A stretch of DNA of 64,000 nt, from the NCBI GenBank assembly GCA_965197525.1, contig OZ240211.1:896001-960000 (forward strand), in the 5' to 3' direction. The notes beneath the pieces are model-generated. The model did no database searches and was not told the origin of the DNA. It saw nothing but the letters and a program-made list of their open reading frames with translations. The translations under genes and the position numbers were made by a program. Source of the DNA: Nitrosopumilus sp. (lineage in GTDB: Archaea > Thermoproteota > Nitrososphaeria > Nitrososphaerales > Nitrosopumilaceae). Of this stretch, positions 20,814-58,573 are shown in pieces (the stretch's first letter is position 1; each line of letters starts with the position of its first letter).

Positions 20814-21452
20814 TTGTGAGTATCTGCAGAGGTTGAGATATTTGGTAACGCCGCGTGGTGTACGTTCTTCTATTGCCGACAATATGTGTAACATTCTACT
20901 CTCCGCCTAATCTCTCTCTCTCTCTCCCCACAACAGCATTCTTCAGACTAGCTAAAACTATAGTCAATATTGCAGTCAGAGAGGAGTTTGAGAATTGGAT
21001 GTCACGTATACAGAATCTGTTTTTATTGTTCTTGGAAATGTACTTGTCAGTATTGTTACTATTGTTATTATTAATATAATTTGCCATTATTTGGGGCTGT
21101 TAAGTTCATGGTAGATAATTCTTGCTGTTAAGGGTCGGTAGATGATTGTGATTTAGACACCACGTGTAGAATTTTGGATGGTATTATATCATCCTCGTTC
21201 TCATACTCGTATACTGTATCCAGAGTATCTGTAAAACCAGCGGTTCTTTCTGTTCTGACCATAACAATCATCATTATCCATAGTATTCTTTTAACTTTTC
21301 TAATACAGGGTTCTGTTAACTTATCGTCGCTTAATTCTTCCTGTTAACTGTCGAGGGGTGAGTGTTCTGTCGGTTCTGTCTAATAATGGGGATATGGAAT
21401 AGATGTCAGGGGTTAAACCCTGTTGTTAATTGTCAGTAGTTTTATGGTGATT

Positions 21453-24346: not shown

Positions 24347-24402
24347 GATTATGAGTTCTGTTAACTTGACGGGATCTAACTCTTTCTGGTAAGTGTCAGG
24401 AG

Positions 24403-25830
24403 CTAGGATCCAGAACGCCCCTTGCCGAACTTCATGCCCTCTGCAACTAGCACGGCATTAAGTTCAGTCATGGTAAGCTTTCCGCCCTTCCGTCTGTTGC
24501 AGTTACCACAAAGTAGTTGAAGGTTTTTGTCATCATCCTGACCACCCTTTGCTTTTGGTATGATGTGATCTACCTCCAAATCCTTGAATAGATAATGGTA
24601 TTTACAACCGTTGCAGTACCCATGTTGAATACCGTATAGCGTATGCTTGATGTCCTTGGATCGCCTGCCTTTTCTTTTTGGTATATCCGTTCTTTGTATG
24701 ACTTGTCCTGCACCAGTAATGAACTTGGCAATACCTGCATCTTTCTTGAGTCTTTGTTCAATCAGCGAATAGGCTCTTTCTGATATATCGCACCCTATCC
24801 ATTGTCTACCCAATCTCTCTGCCGCAAGACAAGCTGTTGCACATCCACAAAACGGATCAAACACGATTTCTCCTACGTTACTGCTTGTCTCAATGATGCG
24901 CTCCAGTAATGCCAGTGGTTTTTGCGTGGGATAACCAAGTCTTTCCTGACCTCGAACATTTGGAATATCAGTCCAGATGTTCTGTAGTGGTACACCTTTA
25001 GCATCTTTCAGGTATATCTTGCGACGAGGCAGTCCACCCTTCTTCTTTGGATAGTGTATCATGTCGTTCCTTTCCAACCCTAGCATAGATTCTAACGGTC
25101 GTTCCCATGTCCTTATGTGTCCCTTATACTCATACTCATATCCCCCAGCCGATAAGTTCTCGGCAGTCAATTTCTCGTGACTGTAACGTCCACGCCCGTC
25201 CTCATTCTTGAAATTCTTCTTGGTGTATTCTTCCGAGTACGGCAGATATACATCATTCCATGTGTAGTCTCTGGTCTTGGAGTAAAACAGTATCTGGTCA
25301 GAAATCTTCCCATATCTCTTGCCGTCATTGTGAGAACTGGTTCGTTTCCACGTTATGTCGTTTCGGAATGATGCTCCACCAAATATTGAATCCAGTACCA
25401 GCTTGAGATAATGACTCATTGTGGTATCGCAGTGCAGGTACAACGAACCCGTTGATTTTAGAATTCTGTGCATCTCCAAAATCCTAATTGCCATGTATAT
25501 CAGATACGACATTGTAGATTTTCCTCCTACTTTGCCAGCAGTTCCTATAATCGAATACAAGGATTCGTTGATCTCTGCAATCTCACCCCACCATGCAACA
25601 TCCACATCACTAAGTGTCCATGTGTCCTTAAACTCGACACCTGCTGCCTTTGATCCTATTGGTGCAGCATAATTGTGTTTGGAATTGAACGGAGGATCAA
25701 GATAAATCAAATCTACACCTTCATCTTCCATACCTCTCATAACAGGCAGATTATCGGCTGTGAAGATAGTTCGATTTTTAATGGTCAAAATGACCACCTT
25801 GAATAACATGATTTGATTTGATTGCTTCAA
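24403..25830 (-). CDS. amino-DNA methyltransferase (N6/N4 family) fused to a C-terminal HNH endonuclease
   Basis: IYLDPPFNS (motif IV), YPTQKP and FDPFCGCAT (motif I), beta-class order; C-terminal CNGC...DHIIPKAKGG..NLQLLCGNCNRRK HNH; true start may be TTG 25788. Confidence 0.92.
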   Translation of the reverse strand: MKQSNQIMLFKVVILTIKNRTIFTADNLPVMRGMEDEGVDLIYLDPPFNSKHNYAAPIGSKAAGVEFKDTWTLSDVDVAWWGEIAEINESLYSIIGTAGKVGGKSTMSYLIYMAIRILEMHRILKSTGSLYLHCDTTMSHYLKLVLDSIFGGASFRNDITWKRTSSHNDGKRYGKISDQILFYSKTRDYTWNDVYLPYSEEYTKKNFKNEDGRGRYSHEKLTAENLSAGGYEYEYKGHIRTWERPLESMLGLERNDMIHYPKKKGGLPRRKIYLKDAKGVPLQNIWTDIPNVRGQERLGYPTQKPLALLERIIETSSNVGEIVFDPFCGCATACLAAERLGRQWIGCDISERAYSLIEQRLKKDAGIAKFITGAGQVIQRTDIPKRKGRRSKDIKHTLYGIQHGYCNGCKYHYLFKDLEVDHIIPKAKGGQDDDKNLQLLCGNCNRRKGGKLTMTELNAVLVAEGMKFGKGRSGS

Positions 25831-25862
25831 AAATATTATTGGAAGGAAGTACCCCTATTGTG

Positions 25863-26224
25863 GGTTCTTGGTTCTTGGTTCTTGGTTCTTGGTTCTTGGT
25901 TCTTGGTTCTTGGTTCTTGGTTCTTGGTTCTTGGTTCTTGGTTCTTGGTTCTTGGTTCTTGGTTCTTGGTTCTTGGTTCTTGGTTCTTGGTTCTTGGTTC
26001 TTGGTTCTTGGTTCTTGGTTCTTGGTTCTTGGTTCTTGGTTCTTGGTTCTTGGTTCTTGGTTCTTGGTTCTTGGTTCTTGGTTCTTGGTTCTTGGTTCTT
26101 GGTTCTTGGTTCTTGGTTCTTGGTTCTTGGTTCTTGGTTCTTGGTTCTTGGTTCTTGGTTCTTGGTTCTTGGTTCTTGGTTCTTGGTTCTTGGTTCTTGG
26201 TTCTTGGTTCTTGGTTCTTGGTTC
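25863..26224. repeat. perfect heptanucleotide tandem repeat (GGTTCTT)x51 plus GGTTC
   Basis: 357 bp / 7 = 51 identical units, read directly. Confidence 0.97.
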
Positions 26225-26230
26225 ATATCA

Positions 26231-26395
26231 TCACATACTCGGTTTTAGAATCAGTTTGTTTCCAATGATTTTAGCTTCCAATTCCTGTCCTTTGTTCCAC
26301 TCCAGTTTTTTTACTTCTTCCTTTGAAAGATTGATGTACCATCTTCGATATTCCTTGTCACCTACACGTCTGTTTATCTTGTCTTGTAACTTCAT
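26231..26395 (-). CDS. AbrB/MazE-like (swapped-hairpin) DNA-binding protein
   Basis: Hand translation MKLQDKINRRVGDKEYRRWYINLSKEEVKKLEWNKGQELEAKIIGNKLILKPSM (54 aa); below the ORF-track cutoff. Confidence 0.7.
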   Translation of the reverse strand: MKLQDKINRRVGDKEYRRWYINLSKEEVKKLEWNKGQELEAKIIGNKLILKPSM

Positions 26396-26409
26396 ATCTT
26401 TTAATTATA

Positions 26410-26474
26410 TAGACCCCTAATAAACAAATCGGTTTATTTGTAGGGGTCTAAACATTTATATTATTAGGGGTCTA
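26410..26474. promoter_or_regulatory. putative operator: three TAGGGGTCTA boxes
   Basis: TAGACCCCTA (26410), TAGGGGTCTA (26441, 26465); 14-bp perfect inverted repeat 26410-26423 / 26461-26474 between the divergent AbrB-like and transposase genes. Confidence 0.6.
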
Positions 26475-26603
26475 ATACTATTGTATGAAAAGAACTGCAA
26501 TGATGAAAAAAGAATCAAAGGGTATGGGACACCCAATGATGAGATTGTTACGATCTGAGTACTCTTTTCTGTCCCACTTTATAATTTTTGAGGTGTCGTA
26601 CCT

Positions 26604-27728
26604 ATGAACGCAAGACAGGCAAGAGGTCAAACCATTGTAGAAAAACAGGGTCAGATCAGAAGAATAAACGACACACAATACGAGATCAAAAGCCAAAACA
26701 GTGATTCTCTATACGATGTGGTTGGCACTGAGTTTGGATGGTCGTGTTCATGTCCCGATCATCAGTTCCGTAAGGTTTGCTGTAAACATATCCATGCAGT
26801 CGAAATATCAATCAAGATACATCAAAAGGTGTATGATGATGTGGTAATTTCAGAAGTTACCATTGACACGTGCAAATACTGCAAATCGGCAAACATAACC
26901 AAGATGGGAGTACGTCACAACAAAAATTATGACGTTCAGATGTTTAGTTGCAAAGACTGTAACAGAAAGTTTTCAATCAATTTGGGATTTGAGAAGATGA
27001 GGGCTACACCAGACCAAATCACAATGGCTATGAACCTGTACTTTAACGGTGAATCCACAAGAAAGACTGCACAGTCGTTGTTACTCACTGGAATCAAGGT
27101 ATCAAACGTCACCATACACAACTGGATAAAGAAATACGTTGATCTTATGGATAGGTATTTGGAAAAGATTACACCTCAAGTGGGTGAATCATGGAGGACT
27201 GATGAGATGTATTTGAAGATCAAGGGTGACAAAAAATACATGTTTGCCATGTTAGATTCTGAGACTAGATTTTGGTTGGCACAGATGGTCTCAGAACACA
27301 AGGGGAATGATGATGTATCGCCAATGTTCAAACAGGCTAAATGCACTGCCAACAAAGTGCCATCAACCCTAATATCTGACGGAGCTGCAAACTTTCATCA
27401 TGCTTGGAAAGAACAATACAAGGCAAAGAATTTCTTACACAAGGACACAGAACACGTAAGGCACATACATCTTGCAGGCGATATGAACAACAACCAAATG
27501 GAATCCTTTAACGGTAATACCATGAGGTTGCGTGAGAGTGCTACAAGAGGAATCAAAAAAGATGATTCTGTCATATTCAAGGGTATGCAAATCCATCACA
27601 ACTTTGTCAGACCTCATCAAAGTTTAGATGGTGATACTCCAGCAGACAGGGCCGGTATCAGGGTTAAAGGTGACAACAAATGGAAAACCATAATTCAGAA
27701 CGCTTCAATGGTACCTACCAACCCTTAA
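26604..27728 (+). CDS. IS6-family DDE transposase with N-terminal SWIM and Zn-ribbon domains
   Basis: CSCPDH...CKHI SWIM; CKYC...CKDC; WRTDEMYLKIKG, LISDGA, NNQMESFNG catalytic segments; stop lies inside the right TIR. Confidence 0.9.
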   Translation: MNARQARGQTIVEKQGQIRRINDTQYEIKSQNSDSLYDVVGTEFGWSCSCPDHQFRKVCCKHIHAVEISIKIHQKVYDDVVISEVTIDTCKYCKSANITKMGVRHNKNYDVQMFSCKDCNRKFSINLGFEKMRATPDQITMAMNLYFNGESTRKTAQSLLLTGIKVSNVTIHNWIKKYVDLMDRYLEKITPQVGESWRTDEMYLKIKGDKKYMFAMLDSETRFWLAQMVSEHKGNDDVSPMFKQAKCTANKVPSTLISDGAANFHHAWKEQYKAKNFLHKDTEHVRHIHLAGDMNNNQMESFNGNTMRLRESATRGIKKDDSVIFKGMQIHHNFVRPHQSLDGDTPADRAGIRVKGDNKWKTIIQNASMVPTNP

Positions 27729-28007
27729 CAGCAAGAATTACCTACCGTGAACTTAACAGCCCCCATTATTTTTTACCATTATTTTGTAGACAACGATACG
27801 GTAATTGACCGGAGGTTTCTTTATCGTATTTTTGACAACTTGAAGTTTTACCAAGCACATTGTCTTGATTGGGATCAGTAACAACACTACTTGAAAGAAT
27901 TACAAAAGTCACATTCAGTATTAAAAACAACCATCATATAACAAAGAGGTCATCTAAACTAGTCTTAGACCGATAATAATATACATGATTAACGGTGAAA
28001 TCTTGAT

Positions 28008-46801: not shown

Positions 46802-47782
46802 TTAACTAATGGCAAGCATTCTGTCAATTGCCAGACGGGCCTTAGATGCAATCTCTTTAGGAACAGTAACTATATTTTTTTCATTGACTAGTGTATCATA
46901 TACCTTCTCCAATGTGATCATCTTCATGTACTGGCATTCTGCCTTATCTGATGCAGGAACAAATGTTTTGGTAGGATTTTGTTGTCTCATCTTGTAGAGT
47001 ATTCCAGTTTCAGTAGCAACGACAAAACGAGAAGATTTTGACTGACTGACATGATTAAGCATGCCTTCAGTTGAGAGAATTGATACTTTGTGATTATCAA
47101 AACTGCCGTCTGCTACATCGTACATCAGTGGCGTGGTACAACTGCATTCAGGATGAATAACGAATTCGGTATCGCGCATTTCATCCAATTTTTTAGTCAC
47201 GTCTTCAGGAGTGATCCCTGCATGAACATGGCATTCACCTGCCCAAATGTGCATGTTTTTTCTGCCAGTCATCTTTGCAACATATGCACCAAGAAACATG
47301 TCAGGCAAAAACAAGATCTCTTTGTTCTCTGGAATTGCTTTGATGACATTTACGGCATTTGATGAAGTACAACAATAGTCGAGTTCTGCTTTGATCTCTG
47401 CTGTAGTGTTAACATAGCCTACTGATATGGCATCAGGATGCTGCGCTTTCCAATTTCGTAACTCGCCTACTGTAATTGAGTCAGATAGTGAACATCCCGC
47501 ATCTAGATCAGGCAGTAACACCTTTTTCTCAGGACTGATTATAGCAGCAGTCTCTGCCATGAAATTTACACCACAAAATAAGATTGTCTTTTGACTCACA
47601 GTAGCTGCCTGTCTTGATAGACCTAGAGAATCACCTGTAAAATCAGCGATATCTTGAACATCGGGAATCTGATAGTTGTGTGCCAAGATTACCACATCTT
47701 TCTCTTTTTTAAGTCGCATGATCTCGTCTTTGAGGTTTAATGGCGATGAGGATGAAGGTGGTGGTTGTACTAGCATAAGCAA
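46802..47782 (-). CDS. nadA: quinolinate synthase A
   Basis: LAHNYQ, FCGVNFMAETA, AGCSL, CHVH and HPEC motifs. Confidence 0.96.
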   Translation of the reverse strand: MLMLVQPPPSSSSPLNLKDEIMRLKKEKDVVILAHNYQIPDVQDIADFTGDSLGLSRQAATVSQKTILFCGVNFMAETAAIISPEKKVLLPDLDAGCSLSDSITVGELRNWKAQHPDAISVGYVNTTAEIKAELDYCCTSSNAVNVIKAIPENKEILFLPDMFLGAYVAKMTGRKNMHIWAGECHVHAGITPEDVTKKLDEMRDTEFVIHPECSCTTPLMYDVADGSFDNHKVSILSTEGMLNHVSQSKSSRFVVATETGILYKMRQQNPTKTFVPASDKAECQYMKMITLEKVYDTLVNEKNIVTVPKEIASKARLAIDRMLAIS

Positions 47783-47944
47783 TAAAAAATTGCGTTTGTG
47801 GGAATTTAAAGAGTAGGAAATTGTCTAAAAATATCTAAAAATCATGTAAATGTGGCAATTATTGCCATTTACGGTTCTGTGAAGTTATCGGGGGTTATCT
47901 GTCAATCCCTAAAATGTATAAACCTCTAAACCGTAAGATATTCG

Positions 47945-49138
47945 TTGAGAGCGATAAAGTCAATATCACAGAAATATACGCCAAACTCTGATCTAATGGA
48001 TATGATGGCTATATTCACAAAGATGGTCAATCATTGCATCAAGACAGGATTGAAAGAAGACACTCACAATATGAAGAGGTTGTCCATGTTATGTTATCAT
48101 GAATTACGTAATTATGACATCCTGTCTTCATACAAACTAAATGCAATATCACGAGCTGCAGGCATATTATCAAACAGAAAACAATCAATCAAACGAGGTG
48201 TCAGAATAAGAGACCCAATAGTCAAAAATCCCTTTATGACAAACTGTTACGGTATACAACACAGCGGTGCACTATTAACAATCCCATACAAGAAACATAA
48301 CCCAATCAACATTTTACTCAACGTTCACACCCAAAAAATCCTATCTGATCCCGCCTTGACGGTGCGCTCGTTTTCATTGACTGCTCTGAACATCAGTCTT
48401 TGTGTTTCAAAAACAGTACAAGAGATAGAGTGCACCAATCAAGTGGGAATAGACAGAAACCTAAGAAATGTGACGTGTGGGAACAAGCAAGAGGTGACAG
48501 TCTACAAGACAAACAAACTGTTATCCATAAAGGAGAACACAATACACGCTAGGGCAGGATTCCACAGAAATGATCGCAGAAAGAAAGGTCAATTCTGGAA
48601 ACAAAGACAGAGACGAATGAGCAATAGAACAAAGCAGTACATCCACAGAATCTCAAAGGATATGGTATACAACGCAGTCAAAAACAAGACTGCAATCGTC
48701 ATGGAAAACCTGAAAGGAATAAGAAAATTGTACCGAAAAGGAAACAGTCAAGGTAACAAGTACAGGCGTAGATTGAACGGGTGGCAATTCTACGAGTTAC
48801 AACGCCAAATAGAATACAAAGCCCAATGGGTAGGGCTGCCTCCAGTCAAGACAGTAGACCCAGGAAACACGAGCACGCAGTGTCCACGATGCGGAAAGAG
48901 ACTCCAAGAGGACATGCAACAACATCGTAAAATGTCGTGTAATAATTGCGGTTTGTTTATGGACAGGGATATTATTGCTGCCATGAACATATCACGCAAG
49001 CTGCCCCCTAGGTTTAGGGGTAGTAGAGATGACATAGATGAAGCGCAGTCCGGCACTTTTGAGCAGGCGATGACGGAACCCGGCACACCATTGGTAATCC
49101 GAATAGTCGATATGTCAAAGTCAAGTTATAGGGGTTAA
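47945..49138 (+). CDS. tnpB: TnpB RNA-guided endonuclease
   Basis: RuvC-I GIDRN, RuvC-II MENL, Zn finger CPRC/CNNC, RuvC-III DRDIIAAMNI; stop lies within the right TIR. Confidence 0.95.
   Translation: MRAIKSISQKYTPNSDLMDMMAIFTKMVNHCIKTGLKEDTHNMKRLSMLCYHELRNYDILSSYKLNAISRAAGILSNRKQSIKRGVRIRDPIVKNPFMTNCYGIQHSGALLTIPYKKHNPINILLNVHTQKILSDPALTVRSFSLTALNISLCVSKTVQEIECTNQVGIDRNLRNVTCGNKQEVTVYKTNKLLSIKENTIHARAGFHRNDRRKKGQFWKQRQRRMSNRTKQYIHRISKDMVYNAVKNKTAIVMENLKGIRKLYRKGNSQGNKYRRRLNGWQFYELQRQIEYKAQWVGLPPVKTVDPGNTSTQCPRCGKRLQEDMQQHRKMSCNNCGLFMDRDIIAAMNISRKLPPRFRGSRDDIDEAQSGTFEQAMTEPGTPLVIRIVDMSKSSYRG
49001..49122 (+). ncRNA. putative omegaRNA scaffold overlapping the tnpB 3' end
   Basis: Nucleotide conservation with 57272-57390 after RuvC-III, including a CCCTA-GGTT-TAGGG hairpin, ends abruptly after GTCGATATGTCAAAGTC; boundaries approximate. 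Confidence 0.6.
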
Positions 49139-49164
49139 CTCCCGATAACTTCACAGAACCCCAT

Positions 49165-49986
49165 TTACGTACCAATAGTGATATCATCTGTGCAGTATCG
49201 TCTCAGAGTTTCGATTGCAGACAGGATAGCCAGCCTGCTAGTCTTAGGATTTAGAGAATCAGGATAGTTTTCAATGGTAAAAATCATCGCACCAAATTTG
49301 CCTTTAGCCTGTATATGATGAGTATTTTTTGTAGAATCCGGATCTGCTACTATCTTTACAAACGTCTTTTCACTGCCAATTCCAGATAGTGATAATAGTG
49401 CTGCAACGTTAATGTTGGCAGGAAACAAATGTACTGCCTCTTTGGCAGCACCCTGAAAGATTGTCGTTGGTGTAGATATAGAGTCCAAGTCCATAGGACA
49501 TTTCTCAAAGAACTTTGCACCTTTAAGAGAACGAGGATGTTTGGTAGTGGTTATTGACAAAGTCTCCAGCTCTGATTTGACTGATTTGATCCCATCCAAT
49601 CCGGCAATAGCCCCTGATGGTAAAATTATTCTTTTCTTAAAATCCCTACAAGCATCAGACAGTATATCATAGACTGACTCGTCTAGCAATGCACCAACGC
49701 TCATAATCATTAGATCACGCTTGTTTTGCAAAACACTTAGTGCAACATCGCGTACGGCATCTTGAGATGCGGCCTCAACTACAATGTTGAGTGGATGGGA
49801 GGACAGTAAATGAGAGTTTTCAACAATTTCAGGTTTGTTTACTAGTTTTTCAACCAAAGACGTAGATGCCTCTTTTGAATCATCATATACATGGGTAATT
49901 ATTGCTGCTGGGATTTTACCAGAGTCAACTGCAAGAGCTATCTGGGTTCCAATTGCACCGCATCCTAAGAGGCCTATTCGTATCAA
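49165..49986 (-). CDS. nadX: L-aspartate dehydrogenase
   Basis: GCGAIG, VVEAASQ, LPSGAIAG, FPANINVAA and NPKTS motifs; stop codon lies inside the TSD. Confidence 0.93.
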   Translation of the reverse strand: MIRIGLLGCGAIGTQIALAVDSGKIPAAIITHVYDDSKEASTSLVEKLVNKPEIVENSHLLSSHPLNIVVEAASQDAVRDVALSVLQNKRDLMIMSVGALLDESVYDILSDACRDFKKRIILPSGAIAGLDGIKSVKSELETLSITTTKHPRSLKGAKFFEKCPMDLDSISTPTTIFQGAAKEAVHLFPANINVAALLSLSGIGSEKTFVKIVADPDSTKNTHHIQAKGKFGAMIFTIENYPDSLNPKTSRLAILSAIETLRRYCTDDITIGT

Positions 49987-57186: not shown

Positions 57187-57243
57187 ATGATGTGTAATAC
57201 AGCATATATTTCATAGGTTCTGTTGCATTAACGAGTGGTGTTA

Positions 57244-58443
57244 TTAACAATAACAATCACTCAGAACACTGGACTTTGACATATCGACTATCTGGATTAC
57301 CGGTATACAGGGTTCCATCATAGCTGACTCAAAAACGTCAGACTGCGCTTCACTTATGCCATCTCTACTATCCCTAAACCTAGGGGACAGTTTGCGTGAT
57401 ATGTTCATGGCAGCTATAATGTCTCTGTCCATGAATAATCCGCAATTATTACACGACATTTTACGATGTTGTTGCATGTCCTCTTGGAGTTTCTTTCCGC
57501 ATCTTGGACATTGCGTGCTCGTGCGTTTTGGGTATACAAATTTGACTGGGAGCCCGACCCATTGGGCTTTGTATTCTATTTGGCGTTGTAACTCGTAGAA
57601 TTGCCAGCCATTCAATCTACGTCTATACTTGTTTCCTTGACCATTTCCTTTCTTGTACAATTTTCTTATTCCTTTCAAGTTTTCTAACACAATTACAGCC
57701 TTTTTACTAACGGCATTATCCACAATATCTTTTGATATTTTGTGTATGTATTGTTTTGTTCTATTGGCCATTCTTTGCTGTTTTATCTTCCAGAATTGAC
57801 CTTTTTTTCTATTGTCATTTCTGTGAAAACCAGCTCTTGCATGTATTGTGTTCTCTTTGATAGATAACAGTTTGTTAGTTTTATAGAACATTACTTTTTC
57901 ATCATTCCCACATGTGACATTTCTAAGGTTTCTGTCTATACCTATTACATTAGAGCACTCTATCTCTTCTATTTGTTTTGAGACACAAATACTAATGGTA
58001 CCATCATTTAATGAAAATGAACGTATAGTTAATTCAGGGTCAGATAGAATATTTTGAGTGTGATCATTTAACAGTATATTGATAGGTTGTCTGTTCTTGA
58101 ATGGTATTGTTAGTAGTGCACCATTGTGTTTTATACCGTAACAATTAGTGATAAATGGCTTTTTTATTTTTGGATATTTAACTTTGACGCCACGTTTTAT
58201 TGATTGCCTTCTGTTTGATAGCATGCCGGCAGCCCTTGATATTGCACAGATTTTATATGTTGATAAAATATCGTATTGATTTAACTCATGATAACACAGA
58301 TAGGACAACCGTTTCATATTGCACACATCTTCTTTTAGTCCTATTCTAATGGAAAGGTTTACCATTTCTATGAATGTATCCATCAACTCTTTTAGTTCAG
58401 AGTTTGGCGTATGCTTTTGTGTTATTGATTTTATGGCTTGCAC
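57244..58443 (-). CDS. tnpB: TnpB RNA-guided endonuclease (paralog)
   Basis: GIDRN, LENL, CPRC/CNNC and DRDIIAAMNI all intact. Confidence 0.95.
   Translation of the reverse strand: MQAIKSITQKHTPNSELKELMDTFIEMVNLSIRIGLKEDVCNMKRLSYLCYHELNQYDILSTYKICAISRAAGMLSNRRQSIKRGVKVKYPKIKKPFITNCYGIKHNGALLTIPFKNRQPINILLNDHTQNILSDPELTIRSFSLNDGTISICVSKQIEEIECSNVIGIDRNLRNVTCGNDEKVMFYKTNKLLSIKENTIHARAGFHRNDNRKKGQFWKIKQQRMANRTKQYIHKISKDIVDNAVSKKAVIVLENLKGIRKLYKKGNGQGNKYRRRLNGWQFYELQRQIEYKAQWVGLPVKFVYPKRTSTQCPRCGKKLQEDMQQHRKMSCNNCGLFMDRDIIAAMNISRKLSPRFRDSRDGISEAQSDVFESAMMEPCIPVIQIVDMSKSSVLSDCYC
57272..57390 (-). ncRNA. putative omegaRNA scaffold of the second tnpB
   Basis: Conserved with 49001-49122; boundaries approximate. 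Confidence 0.6.
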
Positions 58444-58573
58444 GTTATAAATTACAAGGTTTGTTTTTAATAAAAGTGCTTTTTTTATTTATTTGGTTCT
58501 ATTTTACCACTAGTGAATGCAACAGAGCCATTTCATACAAAATAATAAAAAAGAAAAAAAGATGTTTATACAA

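Follow-up and report, generated by a model that had tools for sequence, protein, structure and literature searches.

How does a tnpB gene come to lie between the inverted ends of a DDE transposon in an archaeon, and what might an RNA-guided nuclease contribute to such an element? We addressed this question in a 64-kb stretch of the genome of Nitrosopumilus sp. (GCA_965197525.1, contig OZ240211.1, 896,001-960,000; G000:C1:896001-960000), hereafter the window; coordinates without a prefix refer to the window, and those prefixed G000 are whole-genome coordinates. The window contains a 1288-bp element (47873-49160) with IS6-type ends, an exact target-site duplication and tnpB as its cargo. The explanation that we favor, and consider probably correct, is that elements of this kind are mobilized in trans by IS6-like transposases, after which TnpB-dependent homing or retention favors those insertions that lie next to a target-adjacent motif (TAM).

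The element is bounded by 25-nt terminal inverted repeats that are complementary at 24 of 25 positions and perfect over the outer 20 (GGTTCTGTGAAGTTATCGGG). This 20-mer occurs twice in the window, only at the two element tips, against a chance expectation of 0.01. Judged by the published IS6 end consensus (PMC7986276 and PMC6807381), the element has the 8-bp target duplication of the family and its short ends, which start with GG and carry a cTGT motif (GGTTCTGT at both tips); the single gene for a helix-turn-helix and DDE transposase in 700-900 bp is absent, and its place is taken by tnpB in a longer unit. The sole long open reading frame (ORF) matches Pfam Cas12f1-like_TNB (PF07282; 4.5e-20) and NCBIfam guided_TnpB (121 bits, cut-off 100). 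Alignments to TnpB and Cas12f chains from the PDB match its GIDRN, MENL and DRD RuvC motifs and its CxxC...CxxC zinc ribbon (i.e., the RuvC-like domain with D, E and D residues and the zinc ribbon of a TnpB/OMEGA nuclease). TnpB is under strong purifying selection, with ratios of nonsynonymous to synonymous substitution (dN/dS) of 0.05-0.13 between subfamilies over codons 1-280. The parts of the element are:

47865-47872: left copy of the target-site duplication, CCATTTAC
47873-47897, + strand: left terminal inverted repeat, IS6-type (GGTTCTGT...)
47917-47922, + strand: TATAAA, a possible archaeal TATA box about 25 nt upstream of the tnpB start
47945-49138, + strand: tnpB, 397 aa, with a TTG start and intact RuvC D-E-D motifs and zinc ribbon
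49136-49160, - strand: right terminal inverted repeat, the first 3 nt of whose 25-nt arm form the tnpB stop codon
49161-49168: right copy of the duplication, CCATTTAC, which includes the nadX stop codon (49165-49167, - strand)

A preliminary description of this locus had claimed 20-bp perfect IS6-type repeats and an exact 8-bp duplication around a 1288-bp unit, tnpB as the only gene, with all three RuvC acidic residues, and an ORF reaching into the right repeat. All of this held when the coordinates were re-read, the single long ORF and its aligned D-E-D motifs were confirmed, and the stop codon was located in the first triplet of the arm. The same description overlooked a guide-RNA structure overlapping tnpB and a one-sided TTR motif (R, purine).

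The genome, a single contig of 2.21 Mb that is 99% complete, has as its closest named relatives Nitrosopumilus metagenome-assembled genomes (MAGs) and a sponge Thaumarchaeota bin. It contains 55 tnpB matches, among them 34 full-length elements and ~15 truncated ones, and every truncated copy retains the 3' part of tnpB and the right end. Nucleotide conservation over the 34 copies is ~0.8-0.9 and falls to background precisely at both tips. Pairing of ends across the genome identified 23 tnpB-derived elements with perfect 8-bp duplications, every one of a different sequence, and a second copy in the window raises this count to at least 24:

57216-58529, - strand: second tnpB element, of another subfamily, with ends GGTTCTGTTGCATTAACGAGTGGT, duplication TATGAAAT and TTG on the tnpB-5' side

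Homologues elsewhere also retain GGTTCTGT ends and 8-bp (once 9-bp) duplications; they were found in a second Nitrosopumilus MAG, in other Nitrosopumilaceae genera (45-59% identity) and in three further Thermoproteota families. In a relative, two copies that lie inverted and 126 kb apart on OZ245003.1 (L054 and L056) have exchanged their flanking 8-mers, TAGAAACT and TTATGTTA, an arrangement that fits either a recombination inversion between copies or intramolecular replicative transposition. A search for swapped 8-mers among the own-genome copies without a duplication returned none, save one AT-rich chance match.

The site before insertion was reconstructed by fusing the two flanks around a single duplication copy, and this query aligned unbroken at the loci of 8 of 10 relatives. 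The uninserted site of six relatives reads ...ATTATTGCCAT(A)TTACGTACC..., also written ...GGCAATTATTGCCAT(A)TTACGTACCAAT..., with a single CCAT(A)TTAC at the collapsed site. Furthermore, in run X5 a contig of 5.7 kb from a ~5% diverged strain joins position 47864 to position 49161 and skips 1296 bases (i.e., 1288 of the element and 8 of the duplication).

Candidate helpers are encoded elsewhere in the genome, which has eight loci with a DDE_Tnp_IS240 domain. An intact 1970-bp transposase element (G000 746475-748444) has perfect 26-nt ends (GGTTCTGTGTAATCTTCGTGATATGG) and a duplication (CTATTGTG), and its outer 18 nt are identical, at 18 of 18 positions, to the ends of one tnpB subfamily (e.g., the copies at G000 724290 and 838811). 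The ends of another transposase element, which lies at G000 699962-703151 and has a DNA methylase gene as well, agree at 20 of 24 nt with those of the second tnpB copy in the window. Intact transposase genes lie at G000 746963-748096 and 2002343-2003476. These partner transposases are ~375 aa long, with an N-terminus of SWIM and zinc-finger domains and a DDE_Tnp_IS240 core that scores above the Pfam cut-off; their best NCBIfam match is the IS6 model (1.8e-30), at 106 bits and so below its cut-off of 125. In no element of the genome were a transposase and tnpB found together. The tnpB elements fall into several coexisting subfamilies, at least two of which have ends like those of two different IS6-like transposase lineages; this suggests that ends and helper transposases were matched repeatedly or co-evolved. 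The domain DDE_Tnp_IS240 is present in 9 of 13 family genomes with tnpB versus 50 of 138 others, a co-occurrence to which we give no weight because the genomes are related and many are drafts.

The window itself also holds a decayed IS6-like transposon with ~18 tandem 21-nt repeats (25855-26250) and an intact sister at G000 699962-703151:

24354-27763: decayed 3.4-kb IS6-like transposon, tips mutated (AGTTCTGT... and ...ACAGCCCC)
24403-25830, - strand: N6/N4 DNA methylase fused to HNH
26604-27728, + strand: SWIM and DDE_Tnp_IS240 transposase

The preliminary description had named the 26604 transposase as the helper. We rejected it for the window copy, since the tips of its element are mutated and its ends resemble those of a different tnpB subfamily. 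What that description had proposed more generally, DDE-style movement of a tnpB-only element, is borne out by the distinct 8-bp duplications, the empty site and the matching transposase ends. Its prediction of an empty nadX-nadA site that collapses to one duplication copy proved correct in six relatives, and exactly so in the X5 contig; and homologues, proposed there as a check for inverted repeats and duplications, carried both in the same genome, in other genera and in other families.

We found that the last ~160 nt of the element carry a covarying RNA structure, which is consistent with an omega RNA. In an alignment of 39 tails from this genome and eight others, four helices were paired in 95.1% of cells, compared with 29-38% in controls with slid partners; 180 cells were changed on both sides, compared with 7-38 in these controls, and none of 500 shuffles attained the observed pairing score. 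G-U is the commonest form at two pairs, which points to an RNA in the sense of tnpB. Pairing of helix 1 is maintained at the expense of changes in the protein (Pro to Ser, Gly to Asp). Third-codon identity increases from 0.61-0.79 to 0.81-0.89 in the last 117 codons, where the synonymous rate (dS) is two- to fourfold lower in 8 of 9 subfamily comparisons. A structured RNA that overlaps the 3' end of tnpB and reaches the right element end, as predicted here, is a defining feature of TnpB/OMEGA systems. The predicted parts are:

49000-49117, + strand: predicted omega-RNA scaffold core, from covariation and synonymous constraint
49000-49006/49018-49024, 49030-49036/49111-49117, 49050-49054/49063-49067 and 49074-49077/49098-49101, + strand: scaffold helices
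49120-49154, + strand: predicted terminal hairpin, in which the inner right repeat is paired with adjacent upstream sequence and ACAGAACC is single-stranded

Folding predicts the terminal hairpin, 3' of a conserved GUCAAAGUC, for 12 of 13 representatives of the subfamilies, and its arms vary from one subfamily to another; taken alone it is ambiguous, because a third transposase site at the DNA level would co-vary alike. Helices upstream of 49000 were also predicted and were set aside as uninformative, since they are nearly invariant. In two sponge metatranscriptome runs, contigs were 20-40x deeper over 48880-49135 than over the gene body, compared with 2-4x in DNA runs; this is a weak hint of RNA, since contig depth is no measure for comparing parts of one gene. 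One RNA-library contig continues 255 nt beyond 49160 into the flank of another copy, possibly through DNA carry-over.

When elements were oriented by tnpB and the 3 nt before the left duplication were scored against the mirrored position on the right, a one-sided motif emerged. The sequence (T/A)T(A/G) stands left of the duplication in 33 of 37 own-genome copies, including 23 of 23 with an intact duplication, whereas the mirrored right side fits (T/A)TR in 6 of 37 (genome background 0.088; P ~7e-31). A symmetric target signature, TR-N8-YA, was rejected because that right-hand count is at chance level. The motif extends beyond this genome: NTR fits at 14 of 16 loci from other genomes and genera, and the three further Thermoproteota families with readable ends have TTA, TTA and TTT (two of three fit). 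The six relatives retain TTG at their uninserted site, demonstrating that the motif was part of the target before insertion. It is present on 0 of 8 sides of four elements that bear a transposase and have clean duplications; end-finding in five further genomes yielded only one more clean control of this type.

47862-47864, + strand: TTG, TAM-like motif directly 5' of the left duplication
49161-49180, + strand: predicted guide-encoding DNA, duplication plus right flank, from the TTR geometry and the known layout of TnpB omega RNAs (PMC13565253)

Canonical TnpB elements take their guide from the sequence beyond the right end, and their TAM is found on the left flank (PMC13565253). The empty site described here has TTR, duplication and right flank in this order and would match a guide starting at 49161. 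In the occupied allele, the right junction is preceded by ...ACC, and the left junction matches the predicted guide for 8 nt only. Because the uninserted site consists of TTR, duplication and right flank, this geometry predicts that TnpB with the predicted RNA would cut empty alleles only and spare the occupied one.

These observations can be arranged in a working model. The element would be a non-autonomous IS6-like DDE transposon with tnpB and an omega-RNA gene as cargo, the latter overlapping the tnpB 3' end and continuing across the right inverted repeat. The enzyme that recognizes the GGTTCTGT ends and generates the 8-bp duplication would be an IS6-like transposase from another locus of the genome (SWIM and zinc-finger N-terminus, DDE_Tnp_IS240 core). 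Transcription over the right end would yield an RNA whose guide, probably starting at 49161, corresponds to the duplication and the right flank. With TTR acting as the putative TAM, TnpB and this RNA would cut the empty allele and spare the occupied one, so that the insertion may be copied or retained (homing or drive).

Several points weigh against this model. If the transposase copies in without excision, as IS26 does, restorative homing has no empty donor site (PMC13565253), and a simple drive advantage does not obviously yield 23 of 23. For the subfamily of the window copy, no transposase element has identical ends, the best agreeing at 15 of 20 positions. No two copies are identical, which gives no sign of present-day mobility; the closest pair differ by 5 nt, and the window copy is 20 nt from its nearest relative. 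An Rfam scan of 47700-49400 returned chance-level matches by E-value and no family, and the RNA contigs are uninformative on RNA ends, transcription level and 3' extent. Finally, the control for an intrinsic preference of the transposase consists of four transposase-bearing elements.

The lack of a donor site if the mechanism is replicative, and a 23 of 23 that does not obviously follow from drive, together raise two rival explanations. A wider possibility, which we regard as improbable but worth entertaining, is that TnpB itself takes part in DDE transposition, either by picking the target or because it is needed to fix insertions, such that elements become established only beside a TAM. The first rival is a specific form of target choice, which we hold to be doubtful: TAM-bound TnpB marks or opens DNA at TTR and the DDE transposase makes its 8-bp staggered insertion there in one orientation, TnpB perhaps being tethered to the right end by nascent RNA. 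This would account for a motif that abuts the duplication without variation in spacing and is one-sided in all intact copies, including the most similar ones, and for its absence from transposase-only elements; a drive advantage alone seems too weak for so absolute a filter. However, all copies are at least 5 nt apart, so selection has had time to act, and an interaction between TnpB and the transposase is hypothetical. To our knowledge, guide-independent TAM targeting of a DDE transposase has no precedent, which also counts against such target choice.

The second rival, which we think quite unlikely, attributes TTR to an asymmetric target preference of the transposase complex itself on these ends and treats TnpB and its RNA as cargo with a function unrelated to the insertion site. 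In its favor, the ends of the tnpB elements are slightly asymmetric (left and right differ from position 19) while the 26-nt ends of the transposase element are symmetric, and the transposase-bearing elements that can be scored number only four. Insertion preferences of DDE transposases are normally symmetric, though, and the motif persists in subfamilies and genera whose inner end sequences differ widely and sits precisely where canonical TnpB logic places a TAM. That this is an ordinary IS200/IS605 (IS1341-type) or IS607 tnpB element, with repeats and duplication arising by chance or secondarily, is barely credible, for although TnpB family models carry IS200/IS605 names, at least 24 copies carry 20-26-nt inverted ends flanked by perfect 8-bp duplications that differ from copy to copy, identical ends occur on DDE transposase elements, and neither a Y1 (PF01797) nor a serine recombinase (PF00239) TnpA was found in the genome by searches whose positive controls worked.

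The element lies between the genes for aspartate dehydrogenase, nadX (49165-49986, - strand), and NadA (46802-47782, - strand). The insertion looks harmless, since it falls upstream of the likely nadA promoter and the nadX stop codon lies inside the right duplication. In two related species the same nadA-nadX spacer holds unrelated inserts of ~250 bp (L123:1253-1500) and ~810 bp (L121:2308-3117), and this spacer may tolerate insertions. At 21309, 21372, 23007 (- strand) and 24321, the window has single GGTTCTGT-type ends that lack a matching partner and were probably left behind by further elements or by rearrangements. Elsewhere in the genome, an 851-bp element with perfect IS6-type ends and the duplication TATTACTG (G000 883991-884841) encodes only a 98-aa coiled-coil-like ORF; we did not count it as a relevant family member, as it has no transposase, tnpB or omega-RNA motif.

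The benefit of TnpB is currently tied to transposons that excise cleanly (IS605, IS607), and prokaryotic DDE partners are deemed rare (PMC13565253). This one small genome brings together ~50 copies in several subfamilies, candidate helpers, an empty allele, an RNA scaffold, and a predicted geometry of TAM and guide. Two questions thereby become testable: of what use TnpB is to a DDE element that perhaps does not excise, and whether the nuclease influences where such an element lands. If TnpB does take part in transposition, archaea would have a minimal system, free of CRISPR, in which an RNA-guided nuclease is coupled to a DDE transposase. In addition, the family offers archaeal TnpB-RNA pairs that are compact and for which the predicted TAM is simple.

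The preliminary description had supposed that nothing like this element had been reported, which proved mistaken: Altae-Tran et al. 2023 describe six DDE-associated TnpB branches (DDE-1 to DDE-6), each with inverted ends, as well as solo TnpBs that share these ends and are mobilized in trans (PMC10691335). The basic pairing of DDE and TnpB is thus already published, and what is new here is details and not the category; the interest lies in a testable coupling between TAM and duplication. A 2026 review lists ISL2, IS630 and IS1031 as DDE partners of TnpB and does not include IS6 (PMC13565253), and our literature search found no paper on IS6-ended tnpB elements, on IS6 as a partner or on the one-sided motif. 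The elements resemble the published DDE branches in that a prokaryotic tnpB lies within inverted ends, with its 3' end near the transposon end, and solo copies appear to be mobilized in trans. They differ from those branches, for which IS630 is a named partner, in their IS6-type ends, in that transposase and tnpB were never found in a single element, and in a one-sided TTR beside a variable 8-bp duplication, to which that study makes no reference.

Compared with the IS6 family itself (IS26, IS257; PMC7986276, PMC6807381), the elements share the GG start, cTGT motif and 8-bp duplication, the partner transposase matches DDE_Tnp_IS240 and the NCBIfam IS6 model, and miniature derivatives exist in both. 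In contrast to that family, they have no internal transposase, their cargo is tnpB with a predicted guide RNA, and the partner transposase is long, with SWIM and zinc-finger domains, and falls below the IS6 equivalog cut-off. Only one member with passenger genes is listed in the family review, which contains no mention of TnpB (Varani et al. 2021; PMC7986276), and archaeal 'IS6' elements have been argued not to be true family members (Harmer and Hall 2019; PMC6807381).

With the tnpB-only elements of IS200/IS605 (IS1341 group), the elements share a solo tnpB, a predicted omega RNA overlapping its 3' end, a predicted right-flank guide, a T-rich left-flank motif and gene-less miniatures that keep the RNA end (PMC13565253). 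IS200/IS605 elements have neither inverted ends nor a duplication and move as single strands by Y1 TnpA (PMC13565253), whereas the elements described here have inverted ends and 8-bp duplications in a genome without Y1, and the duplication forms the first 8 nt of the predicted target. Fanzors carried by eukaryotic DDE transposons offer a parallel in layout, with an RNA-guided nuclease between inverted ends and duplications and an RNA that runs through the right end; there, the TAM includes the fixed duplication (TA, TTAA), and the scaffold includes the 3' copy (PMC13565253), while the duplication in the elements described here varies in sequence and has the TAM-like motif outside it.

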